DNA from: a virus
Direction: 5' to 3' (one strand)
IMG/VR virus record: IMGVR_UViG_3300045988_160427
DNA length: 64,000 nucleotides
Each line of letters begins with the position of its first letter. Positions within the stretch are counted from its first letter, which is position 1. Shown one piece after another: positions 1,498 to 50,753 of this stretch. Both the position numbers and the translations under genes were made by a program. The notes under the pieces were generated by a model that worked only from the letters and a program-made list of their open reading frames with translations, ran no database searches and was not told where the DNA came from.

Positions 1498-1643
1498 CTT
1501 TCATCATCTACTACTTCACATTCTCCATATAAAATTAAAAGACATTCACCATTTTCTTCTTTTTGTTTTTCTGGATGTTCGCATTCTTTATAAATTTTAT
1601 TATAATATTGACAATATATATTTGAATCACTTACATACGACAT
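1494..1643 (-). CDS. small Cys-rich protein (49 aa), possible zinc ribbon
   Basis: ATG at 1643. Stop TGA overlaps the ATG of the dCMP deaminase gene (ATGA coupling). Four Cys: C11, C21, C34, C42. Confidence 0.3.
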   Translation of the reverse strand: MSYVSDSNIYCQYYNKIYKECEHPEKQKEENGECLLILYGECEVVDDER

Positions 1644-2199
1644 AGTTTATAAAATCCTCCACTGTTTTTTTATAGATTTCATTTATCTCTTGTTGGCTTT
1701 TAATTTTAATTGGTTTATGATTATTGATAATATAATCATAATTATAATTATTCACATTGTTGTCAGAATTGTTTCCATAATCAATTTGTAACTTCTCTAC
1801 TTCTGGTGATGTTATTAAAATTGTTTTAGCATGTAAAAATTCTACATATTTATCAATTTCTTTAGGTTCTCTACAATGAATAAATATGATATTATTATAA
1901 TTTTTATTTTCTTTACAAATTTCACAAATTTTTTCTTTTGTTCTTGAAAAAGTGTATCCCTGTATATCAACCGCTTCTTTAAGTAAACTAAACATTTTTC
2001 TATTTTTTAATGTTTTTTCTTTGTTGAGTCCAAGATCATCAATGAATTTTAATAGAGGTTCCATTGTTGAAATGTTATGAACTAAATAATTTGATTCAGT
2101 TAAATGTTCTTTTACAATACTTACAAAAGTATCTTTACCTATTTTTGGTCTGCCATTAATAACGTAAAATTGATTCATTTTTTTTATTTTACCTTTCAA
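1627..2199 (-). CDS. P-loop kinase, possibly deoxynucleoside monophosphate kinase-like
   Basis: N-terminal VINGRPKIGKDTF resembles the G-x-x-x-x-GK-[DT] loop of T4 gp1-type dNMP kinases. Sits in a nucleotide-metabolism cluster. Confidence 0.4.
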   Translation of the reverse strand: MKGKIKKMNQFYVINGRPKIGKDTFVSIVKEHLTESNYLVHNISTMEPLLKFIDDLGLNKEKTLKNRKMFSLLKEAVDIQGYTFSRTKEKICEICKENKNYNNIIFIHCREPKEIDKYVEFLHAKTILITSPEVEKLQIDYGNNSDNNVNNYNYDYIINNHKPIKIKSQQEINEIYKKTVEDFINYVVCK

Positions 2200-2239
2200 T
2201 TTATGTTTGTAAACATTATATTATATAAAAAATTTTTTG

Positions 2240-2665
2240 TCAATTATTTTTTAATATTTCTAAAGCTTTTAAATATCTTTTTTCCAACTTTTCATTCCTT
2301 TTTTTATTTTGTATTCTTTCAAACACTAAATTGTGTTTAATATCTTCTATTTTTACTTTTCGAGCAATTGGATTAGAACAAATATTTTTTATATATTCAA
2401 AATAAGTATCATGTGTTGATTTCGTTAATAAAACCAATGGCTCTATTACTTCTTTTGGAAAATATCCTTCCAACTCTTCTTTGGATACAAAAGTATCTTC
2501 TAAAACATCGTGCAGGATTGCAACACAAATATCTGTTTCATTATTAAATTTTTCTGCTATGTGATATGGATGAAAAATATATGGAACATTACCTTTATCT
2601 TTTTGACCATGATGTGCCTTGTATGCTATGTTTAAGGCTTTATTTATCATTTTGGTATAAATCAT
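2240..2665 (-). CDS. HD-domain phosphohydrolase
   Basis: KAHHGQKDKGNVPYIFHPYHIA ... LHDVLEDT, the H..HD...D metal-binding pattern of HD superfamily hydrolases. Confidence 0.7.
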   Translation of the reverse strand: MIYTKMINKALNIAYKAHHGQKDKGNVPYIFHPYHIAEKFNNETDICVAILHDVLEDTFVSKEELEGYFPKEVIEPLVLLTKSTHDTYFEYIKNICSNPIARKVKIEDIKHNLVFERIQNKKRNEKLEKRYLKALEILKNN

Positions 2666-2667
2666 AT

Positions 2668-2865
2668 TTACTGTCCTTTCTTTATATCGTCTACCACAGT
2701 CATTAAAGCATGAAAACTTTCATACATATTTTCATAAAGATTGGAAGATTCTTCATTTGCAGCCTTTGGATTTAAAAATGCTTCAACATCTTTTATTCCT
2801 TTTTTAGATAAATAAGAGAAAATATTAATATCGTCAACGGAATTAAATAATGATTTTACTTTCAT
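2668..2865 (-). CDS. hypothetical protein (65 aa)
   Basis: ORF with AAAGGAAG RBS upstream of ATG at 2865. Last gene of the leftward block. Confidence 0.4.
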   Translation of the reverse strand: MKVKSLFNSVDDINIFSYLSKKGIKDVEAFLNPKAANEESSNLYENMYESFHALMTVVDDIKKGQ

Positions 2866-3204
2866 ATGAAACTTCCTTTATAATCATATTTACAAGTTTG
2901 TATAATATAAAGGTAGTTTAAGGTTTCTACGATCTTCAGTTCTTAAAAGTGTTTACTCCCTTAAACTTACCTACAAACGTTTGTATACTTACTATAAAAT
3001 ATAAAATAATAAATGTCAAGCATAATTTAAAAATTTTTTTATAATTATAATAATATAAAGGATTTTATATAAATAATTAGAATATATTAATAAAAAAGAG
3101 TAAAATAATTATTTTAAAATTTGTCCAAACGAATATATAAATATATATAATATATATTATATAATATACACGTCTGTACAAATTTCATATTTTATATATA
3201 ATTT

Positions 3205-3290
3205 AATCATGAATGTAATGAATGATTAAATTATATATAAAATAAAATAAATTAATATTTGAATGTAATGAAAATATTAATTTATTTTCA
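3205..3290. promoter_or_regulatory. two copies of 12-mer GAATGTAATGAA (3211-3222, 3261-3272), each inside a 6-bp inverted-repeat context (AATCAT..ATGATT; TTTGAA..TTCAAA)
   Basis: Seen directly. Located in the 520-bp AT-rich divergent intergenic region. Candidate operator or origin-type sites. Confidence 0.3.
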
Positions 3291-3325
3291 AATATATTAT
3301 ATTATATATTATTATATATTTTCTA

Positions 3326-3354
3326 TTTACAAAATAAAAAACATATGATATAAT
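3326..3354 (+). promoter_or_regulatory. sigma-A-type promoter TTTACA-17 bp-TATAAT with extended -10 TG (TGaTATAAT)
   Basis: TTTACA 3326-3331, 17-bp spacer, TATAAT 3349-3354 with TG at 3346-3347. It is 30 bp upstream of the first plus-strand gene (GGAGG RBS at 3374). Confidence 0.6.
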
Positions 3355-3385
3355 CAAGTAAACAAACAACAAAGGAGGTGCGAAT

Positions 3386-3583
3386 ATGCAGGATCAATGG
3401 ATTGAAATGTCTTATAATAGATATAACAGAGATAAAAATAAAGAAATTTTTAATATAGATTCATATAAATATTATTGCATTCATTATTACGATTTTAAAG
3501 AAGATAATTATGAAGATGATTACAATCCCTTACTAAAAGAAATAACTTATAAAGAGGTGAAACTTTTTCTTGAAAAATATTAA
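3386..3583 (+). CDS. hypothetical protein (65 aa)
   Basis: First ORF after the promoter. Strong RBS AAAGGAGGTG. Confidence 0.4.
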   Translation: MQDQWIEMSYNRYNRDKNKEIFNIDSYKYYCIHYYDFKEDNYEDDYNPLLKEITYKEVKLFLEKY

Positions 3584-6053
3584 TATTTTACAACTACAGG
3601 CCAAAGATGTTGTTTTTAATGATTATAAAGTAAAATCATTGAAAAGATATAGTGCTGTATTTGATTATTCTTTAGAAAGTATAAAAATGGAAGAAATTCA
3701 TCATAAAGTTTTTAGAAATAATAAATTTATTTTTCAAGAGAACGGAAAAAATTATACTAATGACATTATTTCAATTGCCTTTGATTATCGTCATAAGAAT
3801 TATTCCATATTTGAACTTAGAAATAAATTATATAAAGATGGCTTCTATTGTGAGGGGAAACATTATGTTAGATACAAAAGATCAAGTGGAAGTGCCAGAG
3901 TTGGTAAATGTTTATTTATTCGTGAAGAATTATATTATCCAATGATGAAATGGTCTAATATGGGTTTATCTTTCAAGAAAGACAGTGAAGTAGATTTAGC
4001 TTCTATGGAGGCTTATATTGCTTTGACCACGTCAAGTATTATAGGTACTATACAAATTTATCCAGAAAATATTTTATTAATAGATGACTATGAATCAATT
4101 TTCGAAGATGAGGCTGTAGTTGTAGAAGTTGAAAATAATAAACTTCGTGCTAATAATAAAAAAACTATTATTAAAAATTCTATTTGGGATGGTCAAAGTT
4201 TATTAGATGAATCTTTGTTTAATGGTGAATACAAAGATAAAGGAATGCTATTGTTAAGAAATCGTTTCTTCAAATCTTGTTGTTTTAATACAAAAATACA
4301 AAAATTTTTCAAAGATCATAAAATTACTTCAATAAATCAGTTAAAAGGAAAAACAATAGCAAAAGATATTTCTCAAATCAAACTTATAACTACTCCTTCC
4401 AGTATTAAATTTTTAAAATTTGGAACTTATGATAACTTTTTAGAAAGAATGGATTCATTGTTTGGTGTTGTTAAATATGATAAAAAAACACATTTTATGG
4501 AGGGCGAATTAGTACAAACTCATTATCAACTATTGAATACATTAGAATTCACAAGAGAAGACATGGAAAAATTTTTAGAAGATTCTTTTGATTATTTAAA
4601 AAAATTAAAAAGAGATTTAAGTGTATTTAGATATCAATTAAAAATTAAAAATAATATATTAAATAGATTTCAATTACAATCAATGAATGATTTTATATAT
4701 CAAATGTTAATTTTAAATGATGATATTAAAAAAACATCCATGTTTTACAATTTCAAAAAAGAATTTATAAGAGCTTATATTGCCAATATGCGGAAAGGTC
4801 ATATTCTTGTGAATGGTAATTATTCTACGATGATGGGTAATGGGTATGAAATGTTATTAGAATCCATTGGTAAATTTTTAGGAGTAAGTGTGATTGAAAA
4901 AGAGCATGTAATGACTGTAAGATTCCCTTCCGAAAAAGAATTATTAGGAATTAGAAGCCCTCATATAACAATGGGGAATATATGGGTAGTTAAAAACAGA
5001 ATTTATTCAGAATATTTAAAATATTTTAATTTAAGTGAGCAAATTATTTGTGTGAATGCAATAGAAAGTAATTTACAAAATAGATTAAATGGATGCGATT
5101 ATGATAGTGATAGTATTTTAGTAACTGATAATAAAATTTTAGTTGAAAAAGCTAAAATGAACTATGATAAATTTTTAGTTCCAGTACCAAATATACCTTC
5201 TACCAAAATTAAAAGGTATAATAATTATAATCATAAAAATGATTTAGACGACAAAACTTCGGTGAATAAAATAGGGGAAATAGTTAATTATTCTCAAGTA
5301 TTAAATTCTTTTTTATGGGAACTAAAAAAAGAAGGCAAAGATTATAGTAGTGTTTATAATGATATTTGCATATTAGCTGTAATGAGTGGTATAGAAATTG
5401 ATAAAGCTAAAAAAGAATATTCGATTAATAATGAAATGGCATTAAAAGAATTGAAAACTAAATATAAGTATATTATTGATAAAAAACCTATGTTTTTTAG
5501 TTATTTACCAAATAAATTTATTTTATTCGATCAAGAAATTTTATCAAAATGTTATAGAAACTATGAAACCTCTATGGATTATTTAGAAAACTCTATAAAC
5601 AAAAATCAAAAAAAAATTAGAGCGCCTAAAGAAGAAAAAATAACGATTGGTGAATTAGTTAATAATAATGATTACATCATTGAAAGGAAAGATAAAATAA
5701 AAGCTAGGAGAGTAATTAAAGAGTGCGAGATATTAAAAAATAAAAGTGATTTAGTATGGAGCAATCCTACTTTAAGTTCTCAAGAAAAATATTTTACTAC
5801 TTTAGAATTACAAGACGATTTTATTAAGAAAATAAAAAATAAAAAATTAACAAAAGAAGTTATATGTTTTATTCTTAAAAATCTTTCTACTAAAATACAG
5901 AGGAAAATGTTATTTACTCTTTATCAAACGAATCCTCAACAGGTAGAAGATTTATTAATGGATAAAAAGAAAAAAATAGAAATAATAAAAAGAGATGATG
6001 ATGGCGATATTATTTTATATCAAAAAAAGTTTAAAAAAATACAAAAACAATAA
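3570..6053 (+). CDS. large protein of unknown function (827 aa) with ...NGCDYDSDSILV... acidic loop
   Basis: Long uninterrupted ORF at the head of the late operon. DxDxD-type motif DYDSD near residue 505 and GNYSTMMGNGYEML near 420. No Walker motifs seen. Confidence 0.5.
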   Translation: MKNINILQLQAKDVVFNDYKVKSLKRYSAVFDYSLESIKMEEIHHKVFRNNKFIFQENGKNYTNDIISIAFDYRHKNYSIFELRNKLYKDGFYCEGKHYVRYKRSSGSARVGKCLFIREELYYPMMKWSNMGLSFKKDSEVDLASMEAYIALTTSSIIGTIQIYPENILLIDDYESIFEDEAVVVEVENNKLRANNKKTIIKNSIWDGQSLLDESLFNGEYKDKGMLLLRNRFFKSCCFNTKIQKFFKDHKITSINQLKGKTIAKDISQIKLITTPSSIKFLKFGTYDNFLERMDSLFGVVKYDKKTHFMEGELVQTHYQLLNTLEFTREDMEKFLEDSFDYLKKLKRDLSVFRYQLKIKNNILNRFQLQSMNDFIYQMLILNDDIKKTSMFYNFKKEFIRAYIANMRKGHILVNGNYSTMMGNGYEMLLESIGKFLGVSVIEKEHVMTVRFPSEKELLGIRSPHITMGNIWVVKNRIYSEYLKYFNLSEQIICVNAIESNLQNRLNGCDYDSDSILVTDNKILVEKAKMNYDKFLVPVPNIPSTKIKRYNNYNHKNDLDDKTSVNKIGEIVNYSQVLNSFLWELKKEGKDYSSVYNDICILAVMSGIEIDKAKKEYSINNEMALKELKTKYKYIIDKKPMFFSYLPNKFILFDQEILSKCYRNYETSMDYLENSINKNQKKIRAPKEEKITIGELVNNNDYIIERKDKIKARRVIKECEILKNKSDLVWSNPTLSSQEKYFTTLELQDDFIKKIKNKKLTKEVICFILKNLSTKIQRKMLFTLYQTNPQQVEDLLMDKKKKIEIIKRDDDGDIILYQKKFKKIQKQ

Positions 6054-8157: not shown

Positions 8158-9048
8158 ATGGCCACAAAAAAGATAAAATTATTAGATAATTATTGTGTTT
8201 ATTGTGGGAGAGAACATGCGGTTGAAGATTTTTATAAATCTTTTAATCCTTATCATACTAGTGGATATATTCCATATTGTAAAGAAAGCGCGAGAAAAAT
8301 TTATGATAATTATTTGGTGAAAACAGGTAATGTTGAATCTGCTTTATGGTATACATGTTCTGAAATTGGAATACCATTTATAACAAAAGTATATAAAGCT
8401 GTATTAGAAAGAGTGAAAAACTTAGGTCCTGGAAAAGATTATAATTATATAGGAATTTATATTACTTTTCTACACAGATTAAAAACTAAAGTGGATAAAT
8501 GGGATACTTTTTATAGAACCGATGTTTCTTTAGACCAAGTATCTAGTGTTTCTAAAAGTGAAGAAGCAATAAACAAAGAAACACAAAGACTGGAATTAGA
8601 TTGGGGAAAACAAACTGTAGAAGATTACCAATTTTTGGAATATAGATGGGATGTATATATGGAACGTTTCAAAGATGTAGAGGTTCCTCCCGCGCAAGAG
8701 ACTTTATATAGACAATTATGTTTGGTTGAATTACGTAAAAGAAAAAAAGAGGAAAAAGAAGAATTAACAGATAAAGAGCAATCTATGATATTAAATTTGA
8801 TGAAAATATTAAAAATAGATAATTTTTCCAATAATGATGAAAAAACATTAGTTGAATCTCTTTTAGAGAGACAAATTTGGGAACAGGAAAATACTGATCC
8901 TTGTGAAATAGTTGATAAAGAAAAATATAGAGATTATTGCGACATAGAAAAAAAATGGGGAAAAAATATTTTAAGAGCTGTAAAAAATTTATTGGTAGGA
9001 AATCGAGAATATCCTTCTATTACAGAGATGGAAGATGAAAAACAATGA
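8158..9048 (+). CDS. hypothetical protein with N-terminal Cys4 (CVYCG...YCKE); position fits a small terminase subunit/DNA-recognition protein
   Basis: Immediately upstream of and overlapping the large terminase start. No recognisable motif beyond the zinc-finger-like cysteines. Confidence 0.3.
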   Translation: MATKKIKLLDNYCVYCGREHAVEDFYKSFNPYHTSGYIPYCKESARKIYDNYLVKTGNVESALWYTCSEIGIPFITKVYKAVLERVKNLGPGKDYNYIGIYITFLHRLKTKVDKWDTFYRTDVSLDQVSSVSKSEEAINKETQRLELDWGKQTVEDYQFLEYRWDVYMERFKDVEVPPAQETLYRQLCLVELRKRKKEEKEELTDKEQSMILNLMKILKIDNFSNNDEKTLVESLLERQIWEQENTDPCEIVDKEKYRDYCDIEKKWGKNILRAVKNLLVGNREYPSITEMEDEKQ

Positions 9049-10292
9049 ATTTAAGTGGGATAATTAATGAAAGATTAAGGAAAAGAAATAAGAAAACTAA
9101 AATTTTATCTGAGCAAGAAAAGAAAGAAAATATTATTAAATGGGCAACATTTTATAGAAGAAATATGAACATATATGCAGAAAGAAGATTGGGTATCAGA
9201 TTGCATCCATTTCAACATATTATGATTTATTTGATGAGTATTAGTCAAACTTTTTTTGCGATTTGTACTCGTGGTATATCTAAAACTTTTATAGTTGGAT
9301 TGTTTGCTGTGTGTGAAAGTATGCTTTACCCATATAGCGAAGTTGTAATTACTGCGACCACGATACCACAAGGTGCGGTTATGGTTAAAAATAAAATAGA
9401 AAACGAAATTGTGAAAAAGCTTTCACCTTTGTTACTGTATTTATATGAAAATAATCAAATAAAATTTTCTTATAATGACAATGAGATTAAAGTTGAATTT
9501 CTTTTTAATGGTTCTATTATTAGAGTGTTGCCGAGCGGAGATCAATCTCGTGGTTATCGTGCTACCGTTTTAATTTATGAAGAATGTAGATTATTAAAGA
9601 AAAATATGGTAGACTCAGTTTTTTCTCCCATGTCGCATCCAAGACAGGCTAAATTTATGACAAGAGAAAAATATGCGGGAGATAAAAGATGGCAAGAAGA
9701 AACTATATCTATTTATATTACATCCGCTAGAATGAAATCAGAGTGGTTTTGGACAACATTCAAAGAAGTTGTCCAAAAATGTTATAATAGCAAAAGGATA
9801 GTTGAAAATTTCTTTGCGGCAGATATTTATACAGCTATTGAATATGGTTTAAAAACGAAAGCTGATTTTGAAAAATCTAAGTCTCAAATGAGTGAACTAG
9901 ATTTTAGAATGGAAATATTAAATGAAATGATAGGGGAAGCAGAAAATGCTTTTTTTACATTAGAAATGTTTCGCAATAATCAGGTTTTAACAGTTCCTTT
10001 TGTTCCTCCTAATGTTAGGGATATATTAGGAGGGGAAGATGATTATATAAAAGAAAAAGCAATTAATGAATATAGGTTGCTTTTTATAGATTTTGCTTTC
10101 GCTAATACGACAACCAATCAAGAAAACGACAATAGCATTTTAGGGTGTATGTCTTTATTTTATAAAAATAAGAAAATTTATAGAAATGTTGATTATATTA
10201 CAACACACCCTGCAAGTGATAGCCCAGGGATGGAGAAAAAAATTAGAGAATTTTATTGGGATTACAATGCTGACTTTATCGTGATGGATTAA
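9045..10292 (+). CDS. terL: terminase large subunit, exon 1 (ATPase domain plus start of nuclease domain); ORF stop at 10290-10292 lies in the intron
   Basis: LHPFQHIMIYLM...AICTRGISKTF is a Walker A-like loop. LLFIDFAFANTTTNQENDNSI is the first Asp motif of a TerL RNaseH-like nuclease. ORF is only 415 aa and is followed by an intron. Confidence 0.8.
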   Translation: MNLSGIINERLRKRNKKTKILSEQEKKENIIKWATFYRRNMNIYAERRLGIRLHPFQHIMIYLMSISQTFFAICTRGISKTFIVGLFAVCESMLYPYSEVVITATTIPQGAVMVKNKIENEIVKKLSPLLLYLYENNQIKFSYNDNEIKVEFLFNGSIIRVLPSGDQSRGYRATVLIYEECRLLKKNMVDSVFSPMSHPRQAKFMTREKYAGDKRWQEETISIYITSARMKSEWFWTTFKEVVQKCYNSKRIVENFFAADIYTAIEYGLKTKADFEKSKSQMSELDFRMEILNEMIGEAENAFFTLEMFRNNQVLTVPFVPPNVRDILGGEDDYIKEKAINEYRLLFIDFAFANTTTNQENDNSILGCMSLFYKNKKIYRNVDYITTHPASDSPGMEKKIREFYWDYNADFIVMD

Positions 10293-11462
10293 TTAAGGTT
10301 CCTTTTTATGGTAACATAAATCGAATAACGCATTTAACTGCTGGAACACCCTTAGAGATTTATAAACTACAACGTGACAGTGAAATAATGTGAGCGTGAA
10401 TGTTAAAAATTATAAATATTGGGCAATCAGCAACCAAGCTCCGAACAGGAGAAGGCTCAACGACTATCGAAAATTCTATATGGAAGAAGTAGAGTACATC
10501 ATAAGCGATTGATGATGGAAACGGTGCGCTTTATTTTTTAATAAAGAAGATATAGTCTAACCTTATGTGAAAGCATAAGAAAAAGTGTAGCGAGCTTTTG
10601 TAATAATAATGTAGTAGTATTGCTTTGAAAAGGTGAGTGATATGAAATTATATGAAATTTTAGATGGAAAGAAAAAGGAGAAATCTTTTTCGTGTATTTA
10701 CATGTGGGAAAATTTATATAATAAGAAAAAATACATTGGACAAACTCAAAATTTTTATACCAGAATGGCACAATATTCATATAAAGGCGGCAATATTTAT
10801 TTGAATCGTGCAATAGAGAAATATGGGATAGATAATTTTGAAATTACTGTATTAGAATATGTATCTAAAGAATATTTAGATGAAAGAGAATAATATTGGC
10901 TAGATTTTTATAAATCTTATTTATTTTTAAATGGGTATAATATATGTCGCTATGCGAGTAGTACGCGCGGATATAAACATACTCAAGAAGTGAAAAATAA
11001 ATTAAGGAAGATGAAAATTGATAACCCAGTTTGTTTATGCGGAGAAAAGAATCCAATGTATGGTAAAAAGCATTCATTAGAATGGAGAAAACAACAGTCT
11101 GAAAAAATTAAAGAAAAATGGGAAAAAGATGAAGAATATAGGAATTTTTGGCACGAAAAAATGACGGGCGAAAATAATTATTTTTATGGAGTTCATTTAA
11201 CAGGTGAAAAAAATCCTATGTTTGGTAAAAAACATTCCGAACAGACGCGAAAAAAGATTTCAGATTCAAAAAAGGGTAAGTTTTATGGGAAAACAGTTAA
11301 AATACAATGTGTAGAAACAGGGAAGATATATATTAGTATTTCCCAAGCATCTAAAGAGTTGAATGTAAATATCAATGCTATATACTCAATACTGGATAAA
11401 CCTAATAGAACTTGTAAAAAATTACATTTCATCAAAGTTTAATATAAATTACTACATTTTCG
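10290..11462 (+). mobile_element. group I intron (IA-like core) interrupting terL, carrying a GIY-YIG homing endonuclease gene in its 3' (P9) extension
   Basis: P4 tgctgg 10339-10344 pairs with cagca 10428-10432. P6-like hairpin at 10439-10451. P7 gactat 10462-10467 pairs with atagtc 10552-10557, inside an S-like AAGATATAGTCTAACC. P9 hairpin cttatg-tgaaag-cataag at 10562-10579. Proposed P1 is exon GGAU with IGS GUUCC (10298-10302); P10 is CUU with AAG. Boundaries are inferred. Confidence 0.65.
10642..11442 (+). pseudogene. GIY-YIG homing endonuclease (I-TevI-like: GIY-YIG domain, NUMOD3 repeats, C-terminal HTH) interrupted by an in-frame TAA at 10891-10893
   Basis: N-part CIYMWENLYNKKKYIGQT...NRAIEKYGIDNFEITVLEYV. 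After the TAA the same frame continues YWLDFYKSYLFLNGYNI...TRGYKHTQEVKNKL, then GEKNPMYGKKHS / GEKNPMFGKKHS (NUMOD3 x2) and IYISISQASKELNVNINAIYSIL (HTH). ORFs 10633..10893 and 10990..11442 are in the same frame (both mod 3 = 1). Confidence 0.7.
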
Positions 11463-12041
11463 CTTCGCAACGGTGGAGAAGTGTTGTATAACAATTTAAC
11501 CAATCTATACAATCATCCCGAAAGAGGGAATGCATGGAACCCTCATGGGTTTACTGTATCGAATGAAATCGGAATACACGTTGTTCCTGACACTAAATTA
11601 GCAGATTTGAGAAGTCGTGCAATAGATAGAGAGGCCATTCCAGCAATTGTTCCGATTATTGGAACATCTGATTTAAATAGTATGATGTGGATGGATTTGC
11701 AGTTGCGATTGCGCAATAAAGAAATAAGATTTTTAGTTGATGAAATGGAGTATCAACAAATTTTAGAAGAAACTTCAAGATACTTTAAAATGACTTCTGA
11801 GCAACGCATAATAGAAAGATTGCCTTATATCCAAACATTACTATTGGTTAATGAAGCAATAAATCTTTCTCCTTCTTGGAAGGATGGAAAAGTTAAATTG
11901 TCTGAGCCGAGAAGTGGAATGAAAGATAGAATTGTGGCATGTTCTTATGGAAATTGGATAGGAACATTATTAGAAAATAAACTTTCAAAGGAAGATAATT
12001 ATGGAGAAATGGATATTTCTCAATATCAATTGGTTTTTTAG
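11463..12041 (+). CDS. terL: terminase large subunit, exon 2 (rest of nuclease domain); exon start is inferred, the ORF is open from 11448
   Basis: Same frame as exon 1 (9045 and 11481 both mod 3 = 0). The candidate 3' splice site 11462|11463 is set by the frame requirement (intron length mod 3 = 0), a G at 11462, and a 3-bp P10 pairing (CUU with AAG). Acidic residues (LVDEMEYQQ) are consistent with a TerL nuclease C-half. Exon 1 + exon 2 is about 608 aa. Confidence 0.6.
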   Translation, partial: LRNGGEVLYNNLTNLYNHPERGNAWNPHGFTVSNEIGIHVVPDTKLADLRSRAIDREAIPAIVPIIGTSDLNSMMWMDLQLRLRNKEIRFLVDEMEYQQILEETSRYFKMTSEQRIIERLPYIQTLLLVNEAINLSPSWKDGKVKLSEPRSGMKDRIVACSYGNWIGTLLENKLSKEDNYGEMDISQYQLVF

Positions 12042-46191: not shown

Positions 46192-46203
46192 TGCCATAAC
46201 AAG

Positions 46204-46257
46204 TTTTTTTTAATAAAAAAATAAAAAAGCAATTATTCTAAATGAAACAATTGCTTT
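46204..46257 (-). terminator. rho-independent terminator on minus strand (aaagcaatt...aattgcttt, then T-rich run)
   Basis: 9-bp inverted repeat at 46226-46234 / 46249-46257 with 14-nt loop. Minus strand then reads TTTTATTTTTTTATT. Confidence 0.45.
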
Positions 46258-46273
46258 AATTATTATTTTTTAT

Positions 46274-46462
46274 TTAATTTTGAATTTTATAATATAATCC
46301 ACATTCACAATATCCTTCTTCTTGACTTTCGATAAACTCTTTACACATACATTTGGTTTCTGGGGTTTTTTTAATTTTACATAAGCAGTAATTATTATTT
46401 TTTTTCAATTGTTTTTTAAATTGTTTAACAAAGTCTGTGTCTGGGTTCATAAGAATAATCAT
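46274..46462 (-). CDS. small protein with three CxC pairs (CLC...CMC...CEC), metal-binding?
   Basis: 62-aa ORF. Confidence 0.35.
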   Translation of the reverse strand: MIILMNPDTDFVKQFKKQLKKNNNYCLCKIKKTPETKCMCKEFIESQEEGYCECGLYYKIQN

Positions 46463-46920
46463 AATATTTTTTTATTTTCCTTTCTGAATTGATGATTAAT
46501 ATTTTCCAAGTAGGTGTGATTTTTCATATTTACTATTTTATAAGTCTTGCCACGATCACAATAATTTCCTATTCGTATATAATCTAAATTTTTAGCTATA
46601 GATTCAAAATGCTTTATTTCATATTCGTTTTTAGTATGATAACAACTATAATAAAAAGTCTTATATCCCTCTTTTTTACATAATAATACTACTTTTTCTA
46701 AATCGTCTTGGTTTATTTCTGTATAAAATAGGTCATGATATATCTCCCAAAAACAAACACAAGTAATTTTATCTTTTTTATGTTTTTCTAATATAGAATG
46801 AATATCTTCTAAAAGTTTATTGTGTTCACAAGAAGACACTCTTTCTTGGACAGTGTTAATAATTAGAACCTTTTCTTTTGGTAGAATATCTTTAATAAAA
46901 TATGATGAATATGTAAGCAT
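46459..46920 (-). CDS. NrdG-like paralog lacking the N-terminal radical-SAM cysteine cluster
   Basis: Shares ITCVCF and LDY(L/I)(K/R)IG(R/N)Y motifs with the adjacent NrdG but has no CxxxCxxC. Confidence 0.45.
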   Translation of the reverse strand: MLTYSSYFIKDILPKEKVLIINTVQERVSSCEHNKLLEDIHSILEKHKKDKITCVCFWEIYHDLFYTEINQDDLEKVVLLCKKEGYKTFYYSCYHTKNEYEIKHFESIAKNLDYIRIGNYCDRGKTYKIVNMKNHTYLENINHQFRKENKKIL

Positions 46921-46935
46921 TTATTACTCCTAATT

Positions 46936-47463
46936 TTATTTATTATAAAATAAAGATGTTATATCATATATTTTATAATTTCTTGTGTTGTTGCTATCAA
47001 AATGTACAATTTTATAAAAAATTTGATTTGTGTTTTTTGAATTTAATCCCCCTTTTAGATAATTGTATCTTCCTATTTTTAAATAATCTAAATATTGCAT
47101 GTAAGTATTAAAATGTTCTAATTCTTTTTCAGCTTCTCCTAAGGTATGATAAGGTTTGCCATTTCCATATCCAGAATATAAACAAGTTTTTAATTTATGT
47201 TTTTTACAAATTTTCAAACATTTTATTAGGTCTGATTCATTATGATCTCCCCCAAAGAAACACACGCATGTTATTAAATTTTCATATAGTTTTATAATGT
47301 TTTCAAGATTGTCCAGCAATGGTATTCCTTCATCTTTCCAAAGGAATGGAGAGTGGCACCCCTTGCATTTATAGGGGCAACCACTAACATTTATTCCCAA
47401 TGTTACTTCGTTAGGAACCTCTTGAAAAACTACAAAGTATGATTCATACTTTAGCATTATCAT
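46936..47463 (-). CDS. nrdG: anaerobic ribonucleoside-triphosphate reductase activating protein (radical SAM)
   Basis: GINVSGCPYKCKGCHSP has the CxxxCxxC cluster in the NrdG context, adjacent to nrdD. Confidence 0.8.
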   Translation of the reverse strand: MIMLKYESYFVVFQEVPNEVTLGINVSGCPYKCKGCHSPFLWKDEGIPLLDNLENIIKLYENLITCVCFFGGDHNESDLIKCLKICKKHKLKTCLYSGYGNGKPYHTLGEAEKELEHFNTYMQYLDYLKIGRYNYLKGGLNSKNTNQIFYKIVHFDSNNTRNYKIYDITSLFYNK

Positions 47464-48757
47464 AATACCTCTTTTTTTCCTCTGTCTGCCTTGCTTCGGA
47501 AAAACTAGAAACTCTTTTTAAATAACCAATGACGCGAGTAATATAATCCAAATTATTACTACCACATTTAGGACATTTAGCTAATTTATGTTTAGACACA
47601 TAACCGCAATCATTACATGCAGTGTTTGGAATATTGAATGTAAAATAACTACATCCTGTTTGAATTGCTACATTCAACAACTGTAAATATTGTTGTTTTG
47701 TCAAATGTTCTTCGAGGTTGGCATGTAAAGCTGAACCACCATCTAAATATTTTGTTAACTTATCTCCGTGTAAAATAAATTTGTCTAATAAATTAGATTT
47801 AGTGTCCTCCACAATGTAGAAATAACTGTTGTAACAGTCTCTTGGTACAAAATATCCATCTTCTTTATCCCATTTTGCATTTTTAACGCCTAAATTTTCT
47901 GCGGGAACAAACTCTGTATTGAACATAATTTCATTAGTTTTATCTTTTTTATTTTCCTCATAAATAGGTCTTAAAATAGCTTCTCCATAATTAAAATATT
48001 CTTCATTAGGAGAAATTTCAATGCCTAAAAATTCTGCTCCTTCCAAAAAACCATTAATACCAATAGTTAAATATTGTTTCTCTAAAGCAATATATCCAGC
48101 ATCATATACAGGAAGCATACGAGAATTAAAATTATCTTTAACAATCTCATTGTATGCTGTTAAATAACAATGAATTTTATGTGTTTGTTCTCTAACTGCT
48201 TTCTCAACATCTTTTAGTGTAGCGTTTTTATTTTTTCTGTATACATTTTGCACCAAACGATTGATGTTAATTGTAATTACGCCTTTAGAGCCAGTGGAAA
48301 CTCCCCCTGCTCCGAGTGTGAAAGAAAAAGTATTATCTTGTAATTCATTTTTTAGACGGCAGCATGAAGAAAGGGAGTCGACACTATTACTTCGATAACA
48401 AAAGAAAGAATGTCCTTCAGTCCACATTTCTGCCACAAAATCTTTCCATTCTTTGTCTACATAATCTTTTCCATCATCTAATAAGTTAACAGTTTCTACA
48501 GGGAAAGATAGGAAAGAAGTGGCGGTTTTTAATCTTTCTGCATTAAACCATTTCATAAAATCCTTTTGAAGCCAATTTACGCTCTCCCAACAAGGCTCAG
48601 AACCATCAGGAAAAACAAAATCTTCAAACATGCCGTTAAAATAAGGTTGGTCGAAATAAGCAATATTCCAAAACCCTTGTATTCCATACAATGCGCTACG
48701 TTGTATGCGTTCTCTTATGAACTGCTTTATGTCACCATAAAGAGTAGACCATATCAC
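47444..48757 (-). CDS. nrdD: anaerobic ribonucleoside-triphosphate reductase, exon 2 (C-terminal two thirds); true exon start about 48713, upstream ORF portion is intron
   Basis: C-terminal zinc ribbon CNDCGYVSKHKLAKCPKCGS and glycyl-radical motif TRVIGYL. 437 aa is too short for NrdD alone. Confidence 0.8.
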   Translation of the reverse strand: MIWSTLYGDIKQFIRERIQRSALYGIQGFWNIAYFDQPYFNGMFEDFVFPDGSEPCWESVNWLQKDFMKWFNAERLKTATSFLSFPVETVNLLDDGKDYVDKEWKDFVAEMWTEGHSFFCYRSNSVDSLSSCCRLKNELQDNTFSFTLGAGGVSTGSKGVITININRLVQNVYRKNKNATLKDVEKAVREQTHKIHCYLTAYNEIVKDNFNSRMLPVYDAGYIALEKQYLTIGINGFLEGAEFLGIEISPNEEYFNYGEAILRPIYEENKKDKTNEIMFNTEFVPAENLGVKNAKWDKEDGYFVPRDCYNSYFYIVEDTKSNLLDKFILHGDKLTKYLDGGSALHANLEEHLTKQQYLQLLNVAIQTGCSYFTFNIPNTACNDCGYVSKHKLAKCPKCGSNNLDYITRVIGYLKRVSSFSEARQTEEKKRYYDNAKV

Positions 48758-49672
48758 TATCCTTTGAAAGGATACTCCCCATTTCCACTATCAAACGCTT
48801 ATAGTGTACTTGCTTTCGCAATGGTCGTTGAACGTTCCCTTTATAGGGCTTCGCTTCTGATTGTCTTATTATAATTATGAATTTTAAACAAGTGACAGTT
48901 TTTACAATAAGTAATTAAATTATTTTTATCTAAAAATCTAGGGTCGGCAATAATAATATTATATAATTCATCTACTTTATCAACAACATTTAATTCTTTA
49001 TGTTCGTTACATATTTTTTTAATTATTGTTGCAAAAGGAATGATATGATGTGTGTGTAAATTATTATGGCTCCCGCATATTTGACAAGTATAATTATCTC
49101 TTTTCCGAACTTCTGGAGAAATATTGTTTTGATAAAACTGTCTACATCTTGATTCTAAGGTGCTTATTCCACCTTTCCAATTATGGTGTTCTTTACCTTT
49201 TTGTACCCCAATCTTGGCTTCCGAAATGTCTCTAACATGGATTTTAAATTCTTTTAAAACTCTATTTATTACATGAGGGGCACAATTAAACATTTTACCT
49301 AATTGTTCTTTTGTACAATGTTGTGTTATATATAAATCATACATTTTATTATAATCATTAAATTCAGGAGGAATTTCTTTATTGTTTTTAGCAAAGTGTG
49401 AAGCGCTTAGAGAGCGCCTCTCTACTCCCATTTGTATTAAATGATTTAAAACACTTCTATGAGAGGTTTGTAATATTTTACCTATTTCTACACTTGATTT
49501 TTTTTGATTTATATATAAGTCAAAAATGATCTCATCATCTTTTTGGGTTAATTTTCTCCCCATTTGTATCACCTCCTTGTTTTAGAATGATAAAATTATA
49601 ATCATAATAAGATTTTCCAGAAATTAAAGGAGTTTGCTATATCTATTACTACATATAGGCGCATTTTAGTTT
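48714..49672 (-). mobile_element. group I intron interrupting nrdD, with HNH homing endonuclease gene inserted between the P4 strands (P5 region)
   Basis: Minus-strand elements: P4 5' strand TTCTGG (complement of 49617-49622) pairs with CAGAA in AATCAGAAGCG (48847-48863, overlapping the HEG 3' end). R-like GTTCAACGACCA (48822-48833). GAAA-tetraloop hairpin TTGCGAAAGCAA. S-like GATATGGTCTACTC (48754-48741) with P7 GACCAT/ATGGTC. P9 hairpin CTTTAT-GGTGAC-ATAAAG (48742-48725). Boundaries inferred (5' SS after U 49673 by a GCGU/GCGC P1; 3' SS after G 48714). Confidence 0.6.
48841..49563 (-). CDS. HNH homing endonuclease with N-terminal helix-turn-helix-like region
   Basis: CQICGSHNNLHTHHIIPF...NLITYCKNCHLFKIH is the HNH motif. 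ATG at 49563 with AAGGAGGTG RBS. Lies between the two nrdD segments. Confidence 0.8.
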   Translation of the reverse strand: MGRKLTQKDDEIIFDLYINQKKSSVEIGKILQTSHRSVLNHLIQMGVERRSLSASHFAKNNKEIPPEFNDYNKMYDLYITQHCTKEQLGKMFNCAPHVINRVLKEFKIHVRDISEAKIGVQKGKEHHNWKGGISTLESRCRQFYQNNISPEVRKRDNYTCQICGSHNNLHTHHIIPFATIIKKICNEHKELNVVDKVDELYNIIIADPRFLDKNNLITYCKNCHLFKIHNYNKTIRSEAL

Positions 49673-50319
49673 ACGCTTTGAAAATTCCTCGCGGCGGCTG
49701 GCTGATTTAGCGAATAAACCACTTGACTAAATTTGTCATGAATAATTGAATGAATGGTTCTTTCTCTTCCTATTGCGTTTACTACTACATCTGGATTTAA
49801 GTAATAATTATCTCCATATTCTTTTCTGATAAAATAATCCATATACATTAAAAATTCTGGTGTACTTACAGCTCCTGCAAATTGCGAAGCAATAGCAAAA
49901 ACCAAGTTAACAAAACTTCCGCAAAATGAATCTAAATTTTTTGGTGCTGTAGATAAACCTCCGATATTGGTTAAACCATCAAATAAAAATGGATACATAG
50001 TAATACTTACACAATAAGGCAACATTGGATTGGTTTCGTCATGTCTATAAATTTCATGACCATCCAAAGAACGAATATACTCCTCTGCTAACTCTTCACC
50101 ATAAAGCTCCGTAATTTTCTCAATCATTAAAAGTCTATTAATACCTATGGCATCTTTTTTATACAATTCTCCAGTACAGGTAGTTACATTTTTATTTTCC
50201 ACATTTGCATTCGAATCAACTTGACTTCCGCTTGCGGCATTTGAAGCTACTCTATAGGAATTAATAAAATCAACATAGGAACGATATTTTTCTTTATAGT
50301 TCAATAAAAGATTTGACAT
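49666..50319 (-). CDS. nrdD: anaerobic ribonucleoside-triphosphate reductase, exon 1 (N-terminal third); stop at 49666-49668 lies in the intron
   Basis: 217-aa ORF directly upstream of the HNH gene and nrdD C-terminal ORF, same strand. Combined length about 640 aa fits NrdD. Assignment is by context. Confidence 0.6.
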   Translation of the reverse strand: MSNLLLNYKEKYRSYVDFINSYRVASNAASGSQVDSNANVENKNVTTCTGELYKKDAIGINRLLMIEKITELYGEELAEEYIRSLDGHEIYRHDETNPMLPYCVSITMYPFLFDGLTNIGGLSTAPKNLDSFCGSFVNLVFAIASQFAGAVSTPEFLMYMDYFIRKEYGDNYYLNPDVVVNAIGRERTIHSIIHDKFSQVVYSLNQPAAARNFQSVN

Positions 50320-50325
50320 TTTTAC

Positions 50326-50541
50326 TCACCTTTCTCCATTAATAATTTTTTGATACGCTTCTGCATAAGTTAAAAAATCTTCATCAATTTGCAACACTGG
50401 AAGACTATAAATTTTTCTTGCTTGAATCTCCTCCAATTCATAGGTTTTTTTAAATTCAATACCTTTTTCAACTAATTTTCTTTCTAAGATTTTACATTTC
50501 GGACAAGATGGCGAAGAATACAAAATAATTTGTTTACCCAT
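50326..50541 (-). CDS. nrdH: glutaredoxin/NrdH-like redoxin
   Basis: 71 aa. CPKC active-site motif after a beta-strand (ILYSSPSCPKCK). RNR context. Confidence 0.55.
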   Translation of the reverse strand: MGKQIILYSSPSCPKCKILERKLVEKGIEFKKTYELEEIQARKIYSLPVLQIDEDFLTYAEAYQKIINGER

Positions 50542-50552
50542 GATAACCTCCT

Positions 50553-50753
50553 TTATTTATATAAGAAAAAATAAATGAAACAAATTATTAATATTAACAA
50601 TGTAAAGGTGAATGATATTAATAATTCCAATACAATTTTTTGTAAAGTAATATTATGGTTTGGTTTATAAAACCAATAATAAAATATTATTATTAAACAA
50701 ACAAGAATCAATACAGAATTAGTATTTAATAAGGTAATTAATAAATTCGACAT
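50553..50753 (-). CDS. small hydrophobic membrane protein
   Basis: 66 aa, two hydrophobic stretches. Confidence 0.35.
   Translation of the reverse strand: MSNLLITLLNTNSVLILVCLIIIFYYWFYKPNHNITLQKIVLELLISFTFTLLILIICFIYFFLYK

Follow-up and report, generated by a model that had tools for sequence, protein, structure and literature searches.

Interrupted nrdD genes and group I introns that carry HNH endonucleases have been documented already, as have gut phages with introns in both terL and nrdD (PMC3653736; PMC12880540). The nrdD intron of phage T4 encodes I-TevII, an enzyme of the GIY-YIG type (PMC2988022), and HNH-bearing group I introns are represented by those in nrdE of Staphylococcus phage Twort and in the DNA polymerase genes of phages SPO1 and SP82, the latter intron with I-HmuI (PMC3653736). 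In the gut 'Jug' jumbo phages, nrdD and terL are split by group I introns, HNH endonucleases and inteins, and metatranscriptome reads support splicing (PMC12880540). Here we describe a locus of this kind in the IMG/VR record IMGVR_UViG_3300045988_160427, of which a stretch of 64,000 nucleotides (nt) was analyzed (the window; all positions are those of the window, and nrdD, its intron and the gene within the intron are all on the minus strand). Judging from its sequence, the nrdD gene of this phage, encoding the class III (anaerobic) ribonucleotide reductase, is split by a group I intron with an HNH homing endonuclease gene in the P5 region, and we consider it highly probable that the element as a whole is a mobile, IA2-like phage intron residing in the Val216 codon (GT|G). 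Nothing is changed by this locus in the general knowledge of group I introns; what is new is a corrected gene model and a family-level picture.

Two minus-strand open reading frames (ORFs), 50319-49666 and 48757-47444, are evidently the halves of one class III reductase gene. The former, of 217 amino acids (aa), had been assigned as the N-terminal part in a preliminary description of this DNA by context only, and it does match the Pfam NRDD profile (positions 8-158 of 562, E 8e-27). The latter, of 437 aa, covers positions 169-560 of the same profile (E 1e-58) and contains both of the C-terminal hallmarks noted in that description, the zinc ribbon (CNDCG...CPKCG) and the glycyl-radical motif TRVIGYL. 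When the exon translations are compared with the profile as a spliced product, as had been proposed, the two sides (8-158 and 169-560) join in a single continuous match (8-560, 313.8 bits), and the 625-aa product also passes the NCBIfam equivalog TIGR02827 (838.9 bits versus a cut-off of 568.3, profile positions 8-596 of 596), while the model originally proposed for this comparison, TIGR02487, stays below threshold for this NrdD (145 versus 326). The gene model to use is join(50319..49673, 48674..47444), which replaces two 'NrdD fragments'. Exon 1 (49673..50319) comprises codons 1-215 and the GT of Val216 and is ~98% collinear with L003, a syntenic contig without the intron; exon 2 (47444..48674) comprises the third base of Val216 followed by FWNIAYFD... 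to the stop codon, and aligns to L003 from 48674. The GTG-started N-terminus of the second ORF (48757) is a spurious annotation under this model. Left uncorrected, the annotation would suggest that the phage has no intact anaerobic reductase, an error of some weight where the hosts are gut Clostridia and strict anaerobes.

The limits of the insertion are read from intron-less alleles. Three syntenic contigs (L003, L004, and L005) are without precisely the 998 nt from A49672 to the terminal G48675 (48675..49672), and they encode an uninterrupted 625-aa NrdD, 99% identical to that of the window over the aligned residues. The DNA of L003 aligns, at ~98% identity, to window positions 56317-49673 and then 48674-46267, with an allele of the L003 type reading ...GCCGCACGAAACTTCCAAAGTGT|GTTTTGGAATATTGCCTATTTTGACC... 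across the site (target stretch AACTTCCAAAGTGTGTTTTGGAATATTGCC). By these alignments, along with Rfam matches and covariation, the intron is placed at exactly 49672..48675, within the Val216 codon, and the spliced RNA junction is predicted at 49673/48674, as CAAAGCGU|GUUUUGGAAU (in cDNA form, ...AATTTTCAAAGCGT joined to GTTTTGGAATATTGC...), the corrected protein junction being ...NFQSV|FWNIAYFD. The 5' splice site, after U49673, coincides with the one proposed in the preliminary description, the L003 alignment ending at 49673. The 3' splice site had been placed after G48714, which is off by 39 nt (13 codons), the true site being after G48675. With the former site, exon 2 would start from 48713 (AGAACGCATAC...), the junction would read QSV|ERIQRSALYGIQ, and the spliced product would be of 638 aa; a protein search with this product returned twelve clusters of 625-aa proteins of 96-97% identity, each of them 13 residues shorter, the gap corresponding to ERIQRSALYGIQG, and these 13 residues must be considered spurious. 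Without them the two NrdD ORFs abut at a conserved position: QSVFWN is restored, and ten homologues, with identities as low as 74%, all have QSV-FWN. The original reading had ended at P9, missing P9.1, P9.2 and P10. Likewise, the start of ORF 47444-48757 is intron-derived, as had been recognized, and the intron-derived part extends from 48757 to 48675 and not just to about 48714. The intron ends in a G in the window, as it does in all of the relatives in which the boundary is set by exon alignment (21 of the 24 aligned); in the other three (L143, L146, and L298) the intron 3' boundary could be placed only approximately. The exon-1 frame stops at TAA 49668-49666, just inside the intron.

The RNA of the insertion can be drawn as a complete group I fold. 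The internal guide sequence (49659..49667), read from the sequence, carries both GCGC, which forms P1 with exon GCGU, and AAAAU, which forms P10 with the 3' exon. In P1 (GCGC 49662-49659), U49673 is opposite G49662, and the helix is 100% paired in 9 relatives, and in P10 the AAAAU of 49667-49663 faces GUUUU of 48674-48670 (87.5% paired). The P2 hairpin (49658-49637; 9 base pairs, one G-G mismatch, GUAA loop; 95% paired) is followed by P3 (49633-49627, with CUCCUU within, and 48780-48775; 84% paired), P4 (UUCUGG 49622-49617 and 48860-48855; 100% paired) and P5 (49612-49598 and 48878-48864; 77% paired), the latter also detected as an inverted repeat in a blastn self-match. On the 3' side, P6/P6a (48854-48832; P6a changed on both sides at 4/4 pairs) leads to J6/7 and P7 (GACCA 48826-48822 with UGGUC 48751-48747), P7.1 (48821-48810, with a GAAA loop), P7.2 (48806-48786) and P8 (48774-48758), then J8/7; P7, P7.1, and P7.2 are each 100% paired in 24 relatives and P8 is 92.7% paired. 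This 3' half of the catalytic core, from J6/7 to J8/7, spans 48747..48831, as outlined by Rfam alignments and covariation. The 3' extension (48675..48742) consists of P9 (48742-48725; 100% paired), P9.1 (GUUC-AUAAGA-GAAC, 48722-48709; 98.9% paired), P9.2 (48707-48685; 98.2% paired, 7/7 pairs changed on both sides), and the tail GAAUACAAGG, which ends in the terminal G48675; position 48714 is within the P9.1 loop. Among the elements named in the preliminary description, P4 TTCTGG (49622-49617), GTTCAACGACCA (48833-48822), the GAAA hairpin (48821-48810), P9, and the P1 pairing GCGU/GCGC all stand where they had been placed, and the S-like GATATGGTCTACTC is present as well, at 48755-48742, one base off the position assigned to it. 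P7.1/P7.2 between P7 and P3', together with the P9.1/P9.2 extension, is the architecture of the IA2 phage introns, and by this architecture we classify the intron as IA2-like.

Homologous introns at the same NrdD site were gathered from viral and metagenome contigs, with the endonuclease as bait, about 40 loci being collected in the whole analysis, and the fold was assessed by their covariation. In the 3' half, nine helices with 45 pairs were compared over 24 distinct sequences; 98.0% of the cells are in standard pairs, versus 33-47% in a control in which the partners were slid by 1-3 columns; 32 of the 45 pairs show changes on both sides, and the covariation score is 0.604, versus 0.08-0.13 in slid controls. 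P1, P10, and P2-P5 were assessed on nine 'mini-introns,' in which the ORF was swapped for an artificial GAAA loop counted in no pair, because MAFFT alignment of the full intron with an ORF-less copy misplaced the 5' part. Here (46 pairs), 87.7% of the cells are paired, versus 34-48% when slid, and 25 pairs are changed on both sides. Compensatory changes are found in each of P3, P4, P5, P7, P7.1, P7.2, and P8, one example being the switch from C-G to U-A in P7 of 3 of the 24 sequences. In P1, position -4 has undergone a compensatory G-C to C-G change, and the splice-site U-G pair is invariant in 9/9 relatives; in P2, 8 of 9 pairs have changed on both sides. The proportion of paired cells is 84-100% for P3, P4, P6, P6a, P7, and P8, and 77% for P5, against 33-48% in slid controls. 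Every named helix is supported by covariation, P10 and the outer part of P5 being the weakest. Chance is excluded as an explanation of the fold, by the slid-partner controls and by the E-value of the Rfam match (1.5e-9).

This match, to the group I model RF00028, was obtained in a local scan of 1.4 kb, the check that the preliminary description had recommended, and its score, 43.9 bits, is low because the 719-nt P5 loop with its ORF breaks the model. The model is matched at 83.7 bits (E 2.5e-20) by an ORF-less intron of 286 nt at the same NrdD site in another contig, L006, located by a pattern search of viral contigs and representing a different phage, with nrdD exon 1 ~77% identical to that of the window. 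The ribozyme cores of the two are identical from P5' to the 3' splice site, and three base differences are found in the P4-P5 region, where L006 agrees with L007, one of the intron-bearing contigs close to the window. A lesson in method is that default Rfam scans of the whole 64 kb missed both group I introns of the window, those of nrdD and terL, while scans of ~1.5 kb (1.4-1.6 kb) detect them.

The endonuclease gene (48841..49563; 240 aa and a stop codon) lies between the two P4 strands, in the P5 loop, as had been proposed. The most likely start, by comparison with homologues, is ATG 49563 and not GTG 49572 of the mechanical ORF list, because the homologues all begin with MGR, and a Shine-Dalgarno sequence, AAGGAGG (AAGGAGGTGA, 49578-49572), is found seven bases ahead of this ATG. 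The protein matches PHROG 8446, a phage HNH family (E 6e-26), and the catalytic and zinc residues of HNH enzymes (C160, C163, H172, H173, N215, C220, C223, and H224) are invariant in 20 homologues, which bears out the earlier placing of an HNH endonuclease between the NrdD halves. In an AlphaFold model (mean pLDDT 81.8), two helix-turn-helix modules (residues 9-44; 71-105) are followed by a linker that is disordered and by the HNH domain (136-227). The helix-turn-helix modules are thus N-terminal and the HNH domain is C-terminal, the reverse of the domain order of I-HmuI. I-HmuI nicks its target, while I-TevIII makes a double-strand break. The best match to the nuclease domain among solved structures is SciA of phage T5, a nicking HNH endonuclease (PDB 9qgv, 9qgx; profile E 0.0016; target-normalized TM-score of the fold 0.61, probability 1.00). 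However, SciA is only 21-22% identical, is without the tandem helix-turn-helix modules, and is not intron-encoded, and the likeness may be taken as a lead towards nicking, not as evidence of nicking. The 3' end of the gene doubles as part of the ribozyme: the stretch with P5' (48878-48864), P4' (48860-48855) and P6/P6a (together 48832..48878) also codes for the C-terminus ...YNKTIRSEAL; the final 38 nt of the ORF correspond to P5', J5/4, P4', and P6, and its stop codon is located in the P6a loop. The tail KTIRSEA is kept down to 50% protein identity because these codons double as core helices. A promoter scan of 47300-50700 returned 20 promoter-like sites versus 19.4 expected, with no sign of a separate endonuclease promoter, and the one terminator-like match in the same interval is P9.2 read on the other strand.

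As to mobility, we now have multiple close relatives in which the state of the site can be compared. Among contigs ~98% identical to the window, the intron is absent in L003-L005 and present in L007, L112/L132, L027/L133, L281, and L282. The spliced coding sequence (CDS) of the window differs from L003 at 52 positions, and 23 of these are clustered at CDS positions 629-731, with the insertion at 647; six of them fall within the final 18 nt of exon 1, and all six are synonymous. In comparison with L006, identity is 17/17 nt over the end of exon 1 and 87/90 nt over the start of exon 2, while outside of this tract the nrdD genes are 80-87% identical. Such a tract would be co-conversion-like, as homing would produce; co-conversion of flanking exon accompanies homing, as reviewed for T4 (PMC2988022). 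Decayed copies of the endonuclease are also found. In L096, L098, and L123 the intron is 338 nt long (L096 5121-5458, for example) and contains only a remnant, in which the first 10 codons (MGRRLTEEDD) are fused to the last ~20 codons, an internal deletion of the ORF that is seen in L135, and in L006 the ORF has been lost cleanly. The presence/absence polymorphism, the co-conversion-like tract, and the decayed ORF copies point to an active homing element, and the textbook life cycle of homing endonucleases can be followed here in metagenomes, with empty sites, occupied sites with co-conversion-like flanks, and endonuclease-deleted copies among close relatives.

We propose that the transcript would fold into the P1-P10 architecture, that an external guanosine would attack after U49673, paired with G49662 in P1, and that exon 1, once freed, would attack at the 3' splice site behind the terminal G48675, where exon 2 would be aligned by P10, the product being an mRNA for the 625-aa NrdD reading ...NFQSV-FWNIAYFD.... 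In a mixed infection the 240-aa enzyme, by analogy with intron-encoded HNH enzymes, would nick or cut an intron-less nrdD near the site, and the recipient, through recombinational repair, would acquire the intron together with flanking exon sequence, ~20 nt on the upstream side and ~90 nt on the downstream side. Established here are the exact boundaries, the covarying helices, the intact HNH motif, the presence/absence polymorphism, the co-conversion-like tract, and the decayed endonuclease copies. A number of points weigh against this reading. The window copy is below the gathering score of RF00028 (43.9 versus 50 bits), and whole-window Rfam scans at the gathering threshold and E <= 0.01 returned only a tRNA and not the nrdD intron, the speed filters of such scans dropping the split intron. 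The Pfam HNH match is marginally under its cut-off (21.3 versus 21.4 bits), and P10 is weak in some relatives. The substitutions clustered around the site may be due in part not to co-conversion but to selection, acting on P1/P10 pairing or favouring cleavage resistance. Splicing we infer from sequence, and both the activity and the cut site of the endonuclease are predicted by analogy.

Three other readings were weighed, one of which retains the intron and moves its end: with a 3' splice site after G48714 the gene would encode a 638-aa NrdD with the extra ERIQRSALYGIQG. The frame is open through 48713-48675, so that the ORF alone does not decide, and the proposed position is preceded by a G. 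However, these 13 residues are missing from 120/120 homologues among the matches listed, including those of 96-97% identity, the closest 12 among the matches listed being exactly 625 aa long, and the DNA of the intron-less allele resumes at 48674, the only position at which P10 (GUUUU/AAAAU) forms. The alternative site also falls into the P9.1 loop, with P9.1 and the downstream P9.2 both covarying strongly, and the 39 nt in question behave as intron, being 100% identical in L006, while exon 2 away from the junction is ~80-87% identical. All this makes the longer product extremely improbable. It is also very improbable, if slightly less so, that no splicing takes place and that nrdD is just split in two by an endonuclease gene of the free-standing kind, with the NrdD fragments translated apart and assembling. 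Split reductase genes of this type are known, nrdA of Aeromonas phage Aeh1, split by mobE, being one example (PMC3653736; PMC2988022), and some relatives of our endonuclease are free-standing just downstream of nrdD (L139-L142). Here, however, the ORF is flanked by a group I fold that is complete and covaries, copies of 286-338 nt without the ORF are maintained at this site, the split is within a codon, and at the junction exon 2 has neither a Shine-Dalgarno sequence nor a start codon, with GTG 48757, the first start in frame, located inside the ribozyme.

It is somewhat more conceivable, while still unlikely, that the element is a decaying relic, with the ribozyme and/or the endonuclease inactive and nrdD a pseudogene in this phage. 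Decay is a predicted stage of the homing-endonuclease life cycle, decayed endonuclease copies are present in relatives, and the terL intron of the same window appears to carry a GIY-YIG ORF split in two. However, neither nrdD exon is damaged, and within ~50 nt on either side of the junction all differences from the intron-less allele are synonymous; the ribozyme core is identical to that of the L006 copy and fits the family consensus, with the window helices pairing as in the family alignment; and the endonuclease ORF is full length, retains all the catalytic and zinc residues, and belongs to a 97%-identical cluster of 74 member sequences. The functional, mobile intron is the reading that we retain. 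An intein was rejected as a separate candidate, given the in-frame stop (TAA 49668-49666) of exon 1, and given an endonuclease with its own Shine-Dalgarno sequence and start codon and with no intein domains.

The intron is far from unique. The preliminary description had considered the HNH cargo specific to this genome, but many metagenomic phages have this intron, with its endonuclease, at the identical position of NrdD. Endonuclease homologues of 59-78% identity are found at this junction in phages whose gene neighbourhoods differ, NrdDs of only ~27-33% identity are likewise occupied there, and the ribozyme P9-P9.1 motif occurs in >120 viral contigs. Three settings are seen for genes of the endonuclease lineage: the P5 loop, what appears to be the P1 loop (L143-L146), and a free-standing position just downstream of nrdD (L139-L142). 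It is possible, and we suggest this tentatively, that the intron is a member of a large, apparently undescribed homing family dedicated to one NrdD site (Val216/Phe217), ranging over NrdD genes from 99% down to ~27% identity and including mobilization of ORF-less copies in trans. The persistence and spread of ORF-less ribozymes, one of them core-identical to an ORF-bearing copy, suggests that they may be mobilized in trans by the endonucleases of co-infecting phages. If true, the family would present a natural series for partner swaps between ribozymes and endonucleases and for the continued movement of ORF-less introns.

Variations on this theme are seen in individual contigs. In L143-L146 (e.g., IMGVR_UViG_3300045988_166378, ~1084-2414), the same ribozyme family occupies the same NrdD site, and the endonuclease (45% identity) is upstream of P3; a P1 of 7 base pairs (exon GCAGCGU with GCGCUGC) forms only with a guide located after the ORF, and P5 is short and GAAA-capped. 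As read by eye, the ORF of these introns seems to sit in the P1 loop. In L139-L142 (e.g., IMGVR_UViG_3300028048_003227), endonuclease relatives of ~335-345 aa (45-47% identity) are encoded directly downstream of an nrdD with no insertion at 216/217, an arrangement resembling the free-standing mobC of T4, between nrdD and nrdG. The nrdD of L006 (IMGVR_UViG_3300045988_141624, 1551-5118) has at least three interruptions, of which the ORF-less intron copy is the first and the only one to reach the Rfam gathering score; the second contains a 211-aa ORF (3214-3849; N-terminus ...MVYIGQ...) that is GIY-YIG-like, and at the third ...KYLDG is separated from GSALHANLEE by a gap of ~200 nt. NrdD inteins (Pfam Intein_splicing, LAGLIDADG) are present, besides the 216/217 intron, in P0119, L127 (3883-6135), and L128 (1112-2911). 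With these occurrences nrdD is a hot spot for selfish elements of several kinds. In Prevotella phages Lak-B1 (MK250020.1, ~163650-166620) and Lak-C1, whose records are unannotated, the NrdD alignment begins two residues past this junction, exon 1 is ~1.6 kb away, and a stretch 77% identical to the ribozyme 3' half is found further downstream; it seems that these nrdD genes have two interruptions, one of them at this site or close to it.

In relation to T4, whose nrdD intron (sunY) is in the same conserved N-terminal region of NrdD, the 'classic' location claimed in the preliminary description holds for the gene, but not for the insertion site or the enzyme. The T4 intron interrupts codon Tyr180 (T|AT), which corresponds to position 143/144 of the Pfam NRDD profile, while the present one is at 158/159, 15 codons downstream (T4 segment ...AYEY|EVNTLFSSNGQTP^FVTI..., with ^ at the position equivalent to that of the present intron). 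These positions were derived from T4 nrdD rebuilt from the annotated record (5' exon ending ...TATGAGT, product of 605 aa); in BLASTP of the T4 NrdD against the present one only the C-terminus aligns, and the T4 site was placed by Pfam profile coordinates instead. The two proteins are of different subfamilies, and the T4 enzyme, of the GIY-YIG type, is encoded in the 3' part of its intron (T4 coordinates), whereas here an HNH protein is encoded in the P5 loop. The two introns are independent insertions and do not form one lineage. The Twort, SPO1, and SP82 introns, from Gram-positive phages and with IA2-like ribozymes, share with the present one a host gene of nucleotide metabolism or replication and the HNH cargo (PMC3653736), but they differ in the host gene and the site. 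The 3' half of the ribozyme is 69-77% identical, over ~150-180 nt, to unannotated stretches in phages of Bacillus, Enterococcus, Staphylococcus (140-kb genomes), and Clostridioides, and matches in the same range are found in the Prevotella Lak phages (megaphages) and in crAss-like phages. Like the Jug phages, the window possesses both a terL and an nrdD intron; the Jug phages, however, have genomes of 360-402 kb and Bacteroides hosts, while the contigs related to the window are ~83 kb long. The nearest isolates are phages of Enterocloster bolteae, with a portal protein 48% identical to that of the window, and megablast of 20 kb of the window against 50,697 phage records returned no match.

The neighbours of nrdD make up a nucleotide-metabolism module, with a glutaredoxin-like gene upstream and an NrdG-type activase and a dUTPase downstream; the adjoining NrdG scores 146.7 bits with TIGR02826, versus a cut-off of 151.7. 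Directly after nrdG, a minus-strand ORF of 153 aa (46459-46920) has no Pfam match and is found at the same position in L003-L005. Between this small ORF and the dUTPase gene, L003 (9055-10035, versus window 46192-46267) has an extra gene of ~980 nt (Pfam N6_N4_Mtase, 9126-9983) that is absent from the window.

The terL intron that the preliminary description had noted does exist, on the plus strand: RF00028 matches 10281-10579 with 58.2 bits in a local scan, having been missed by both whole-window scans. It lies between terL ORFs 9045-10292 and 11481-12041 and is followed by a GIY-YIG-like ORF, apparently split (10633-10893, 86 aa, and 10990-11442, 150 aa), possibly a decaying endonuclease. 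In blastn of the nrdD intron and tblastn of its endonuclease against the rest of the window only self-matches were obtained, with no similarity to the terL intron, and the two introns do not appear to be recent copies of each other. The tRNA gene of the window is located at 985-1058 on the minus strand (Rfam 66.6 bits), with the anticodon loop CUCAUAA and the anticodon CAU, of the Met or Ile2 type.

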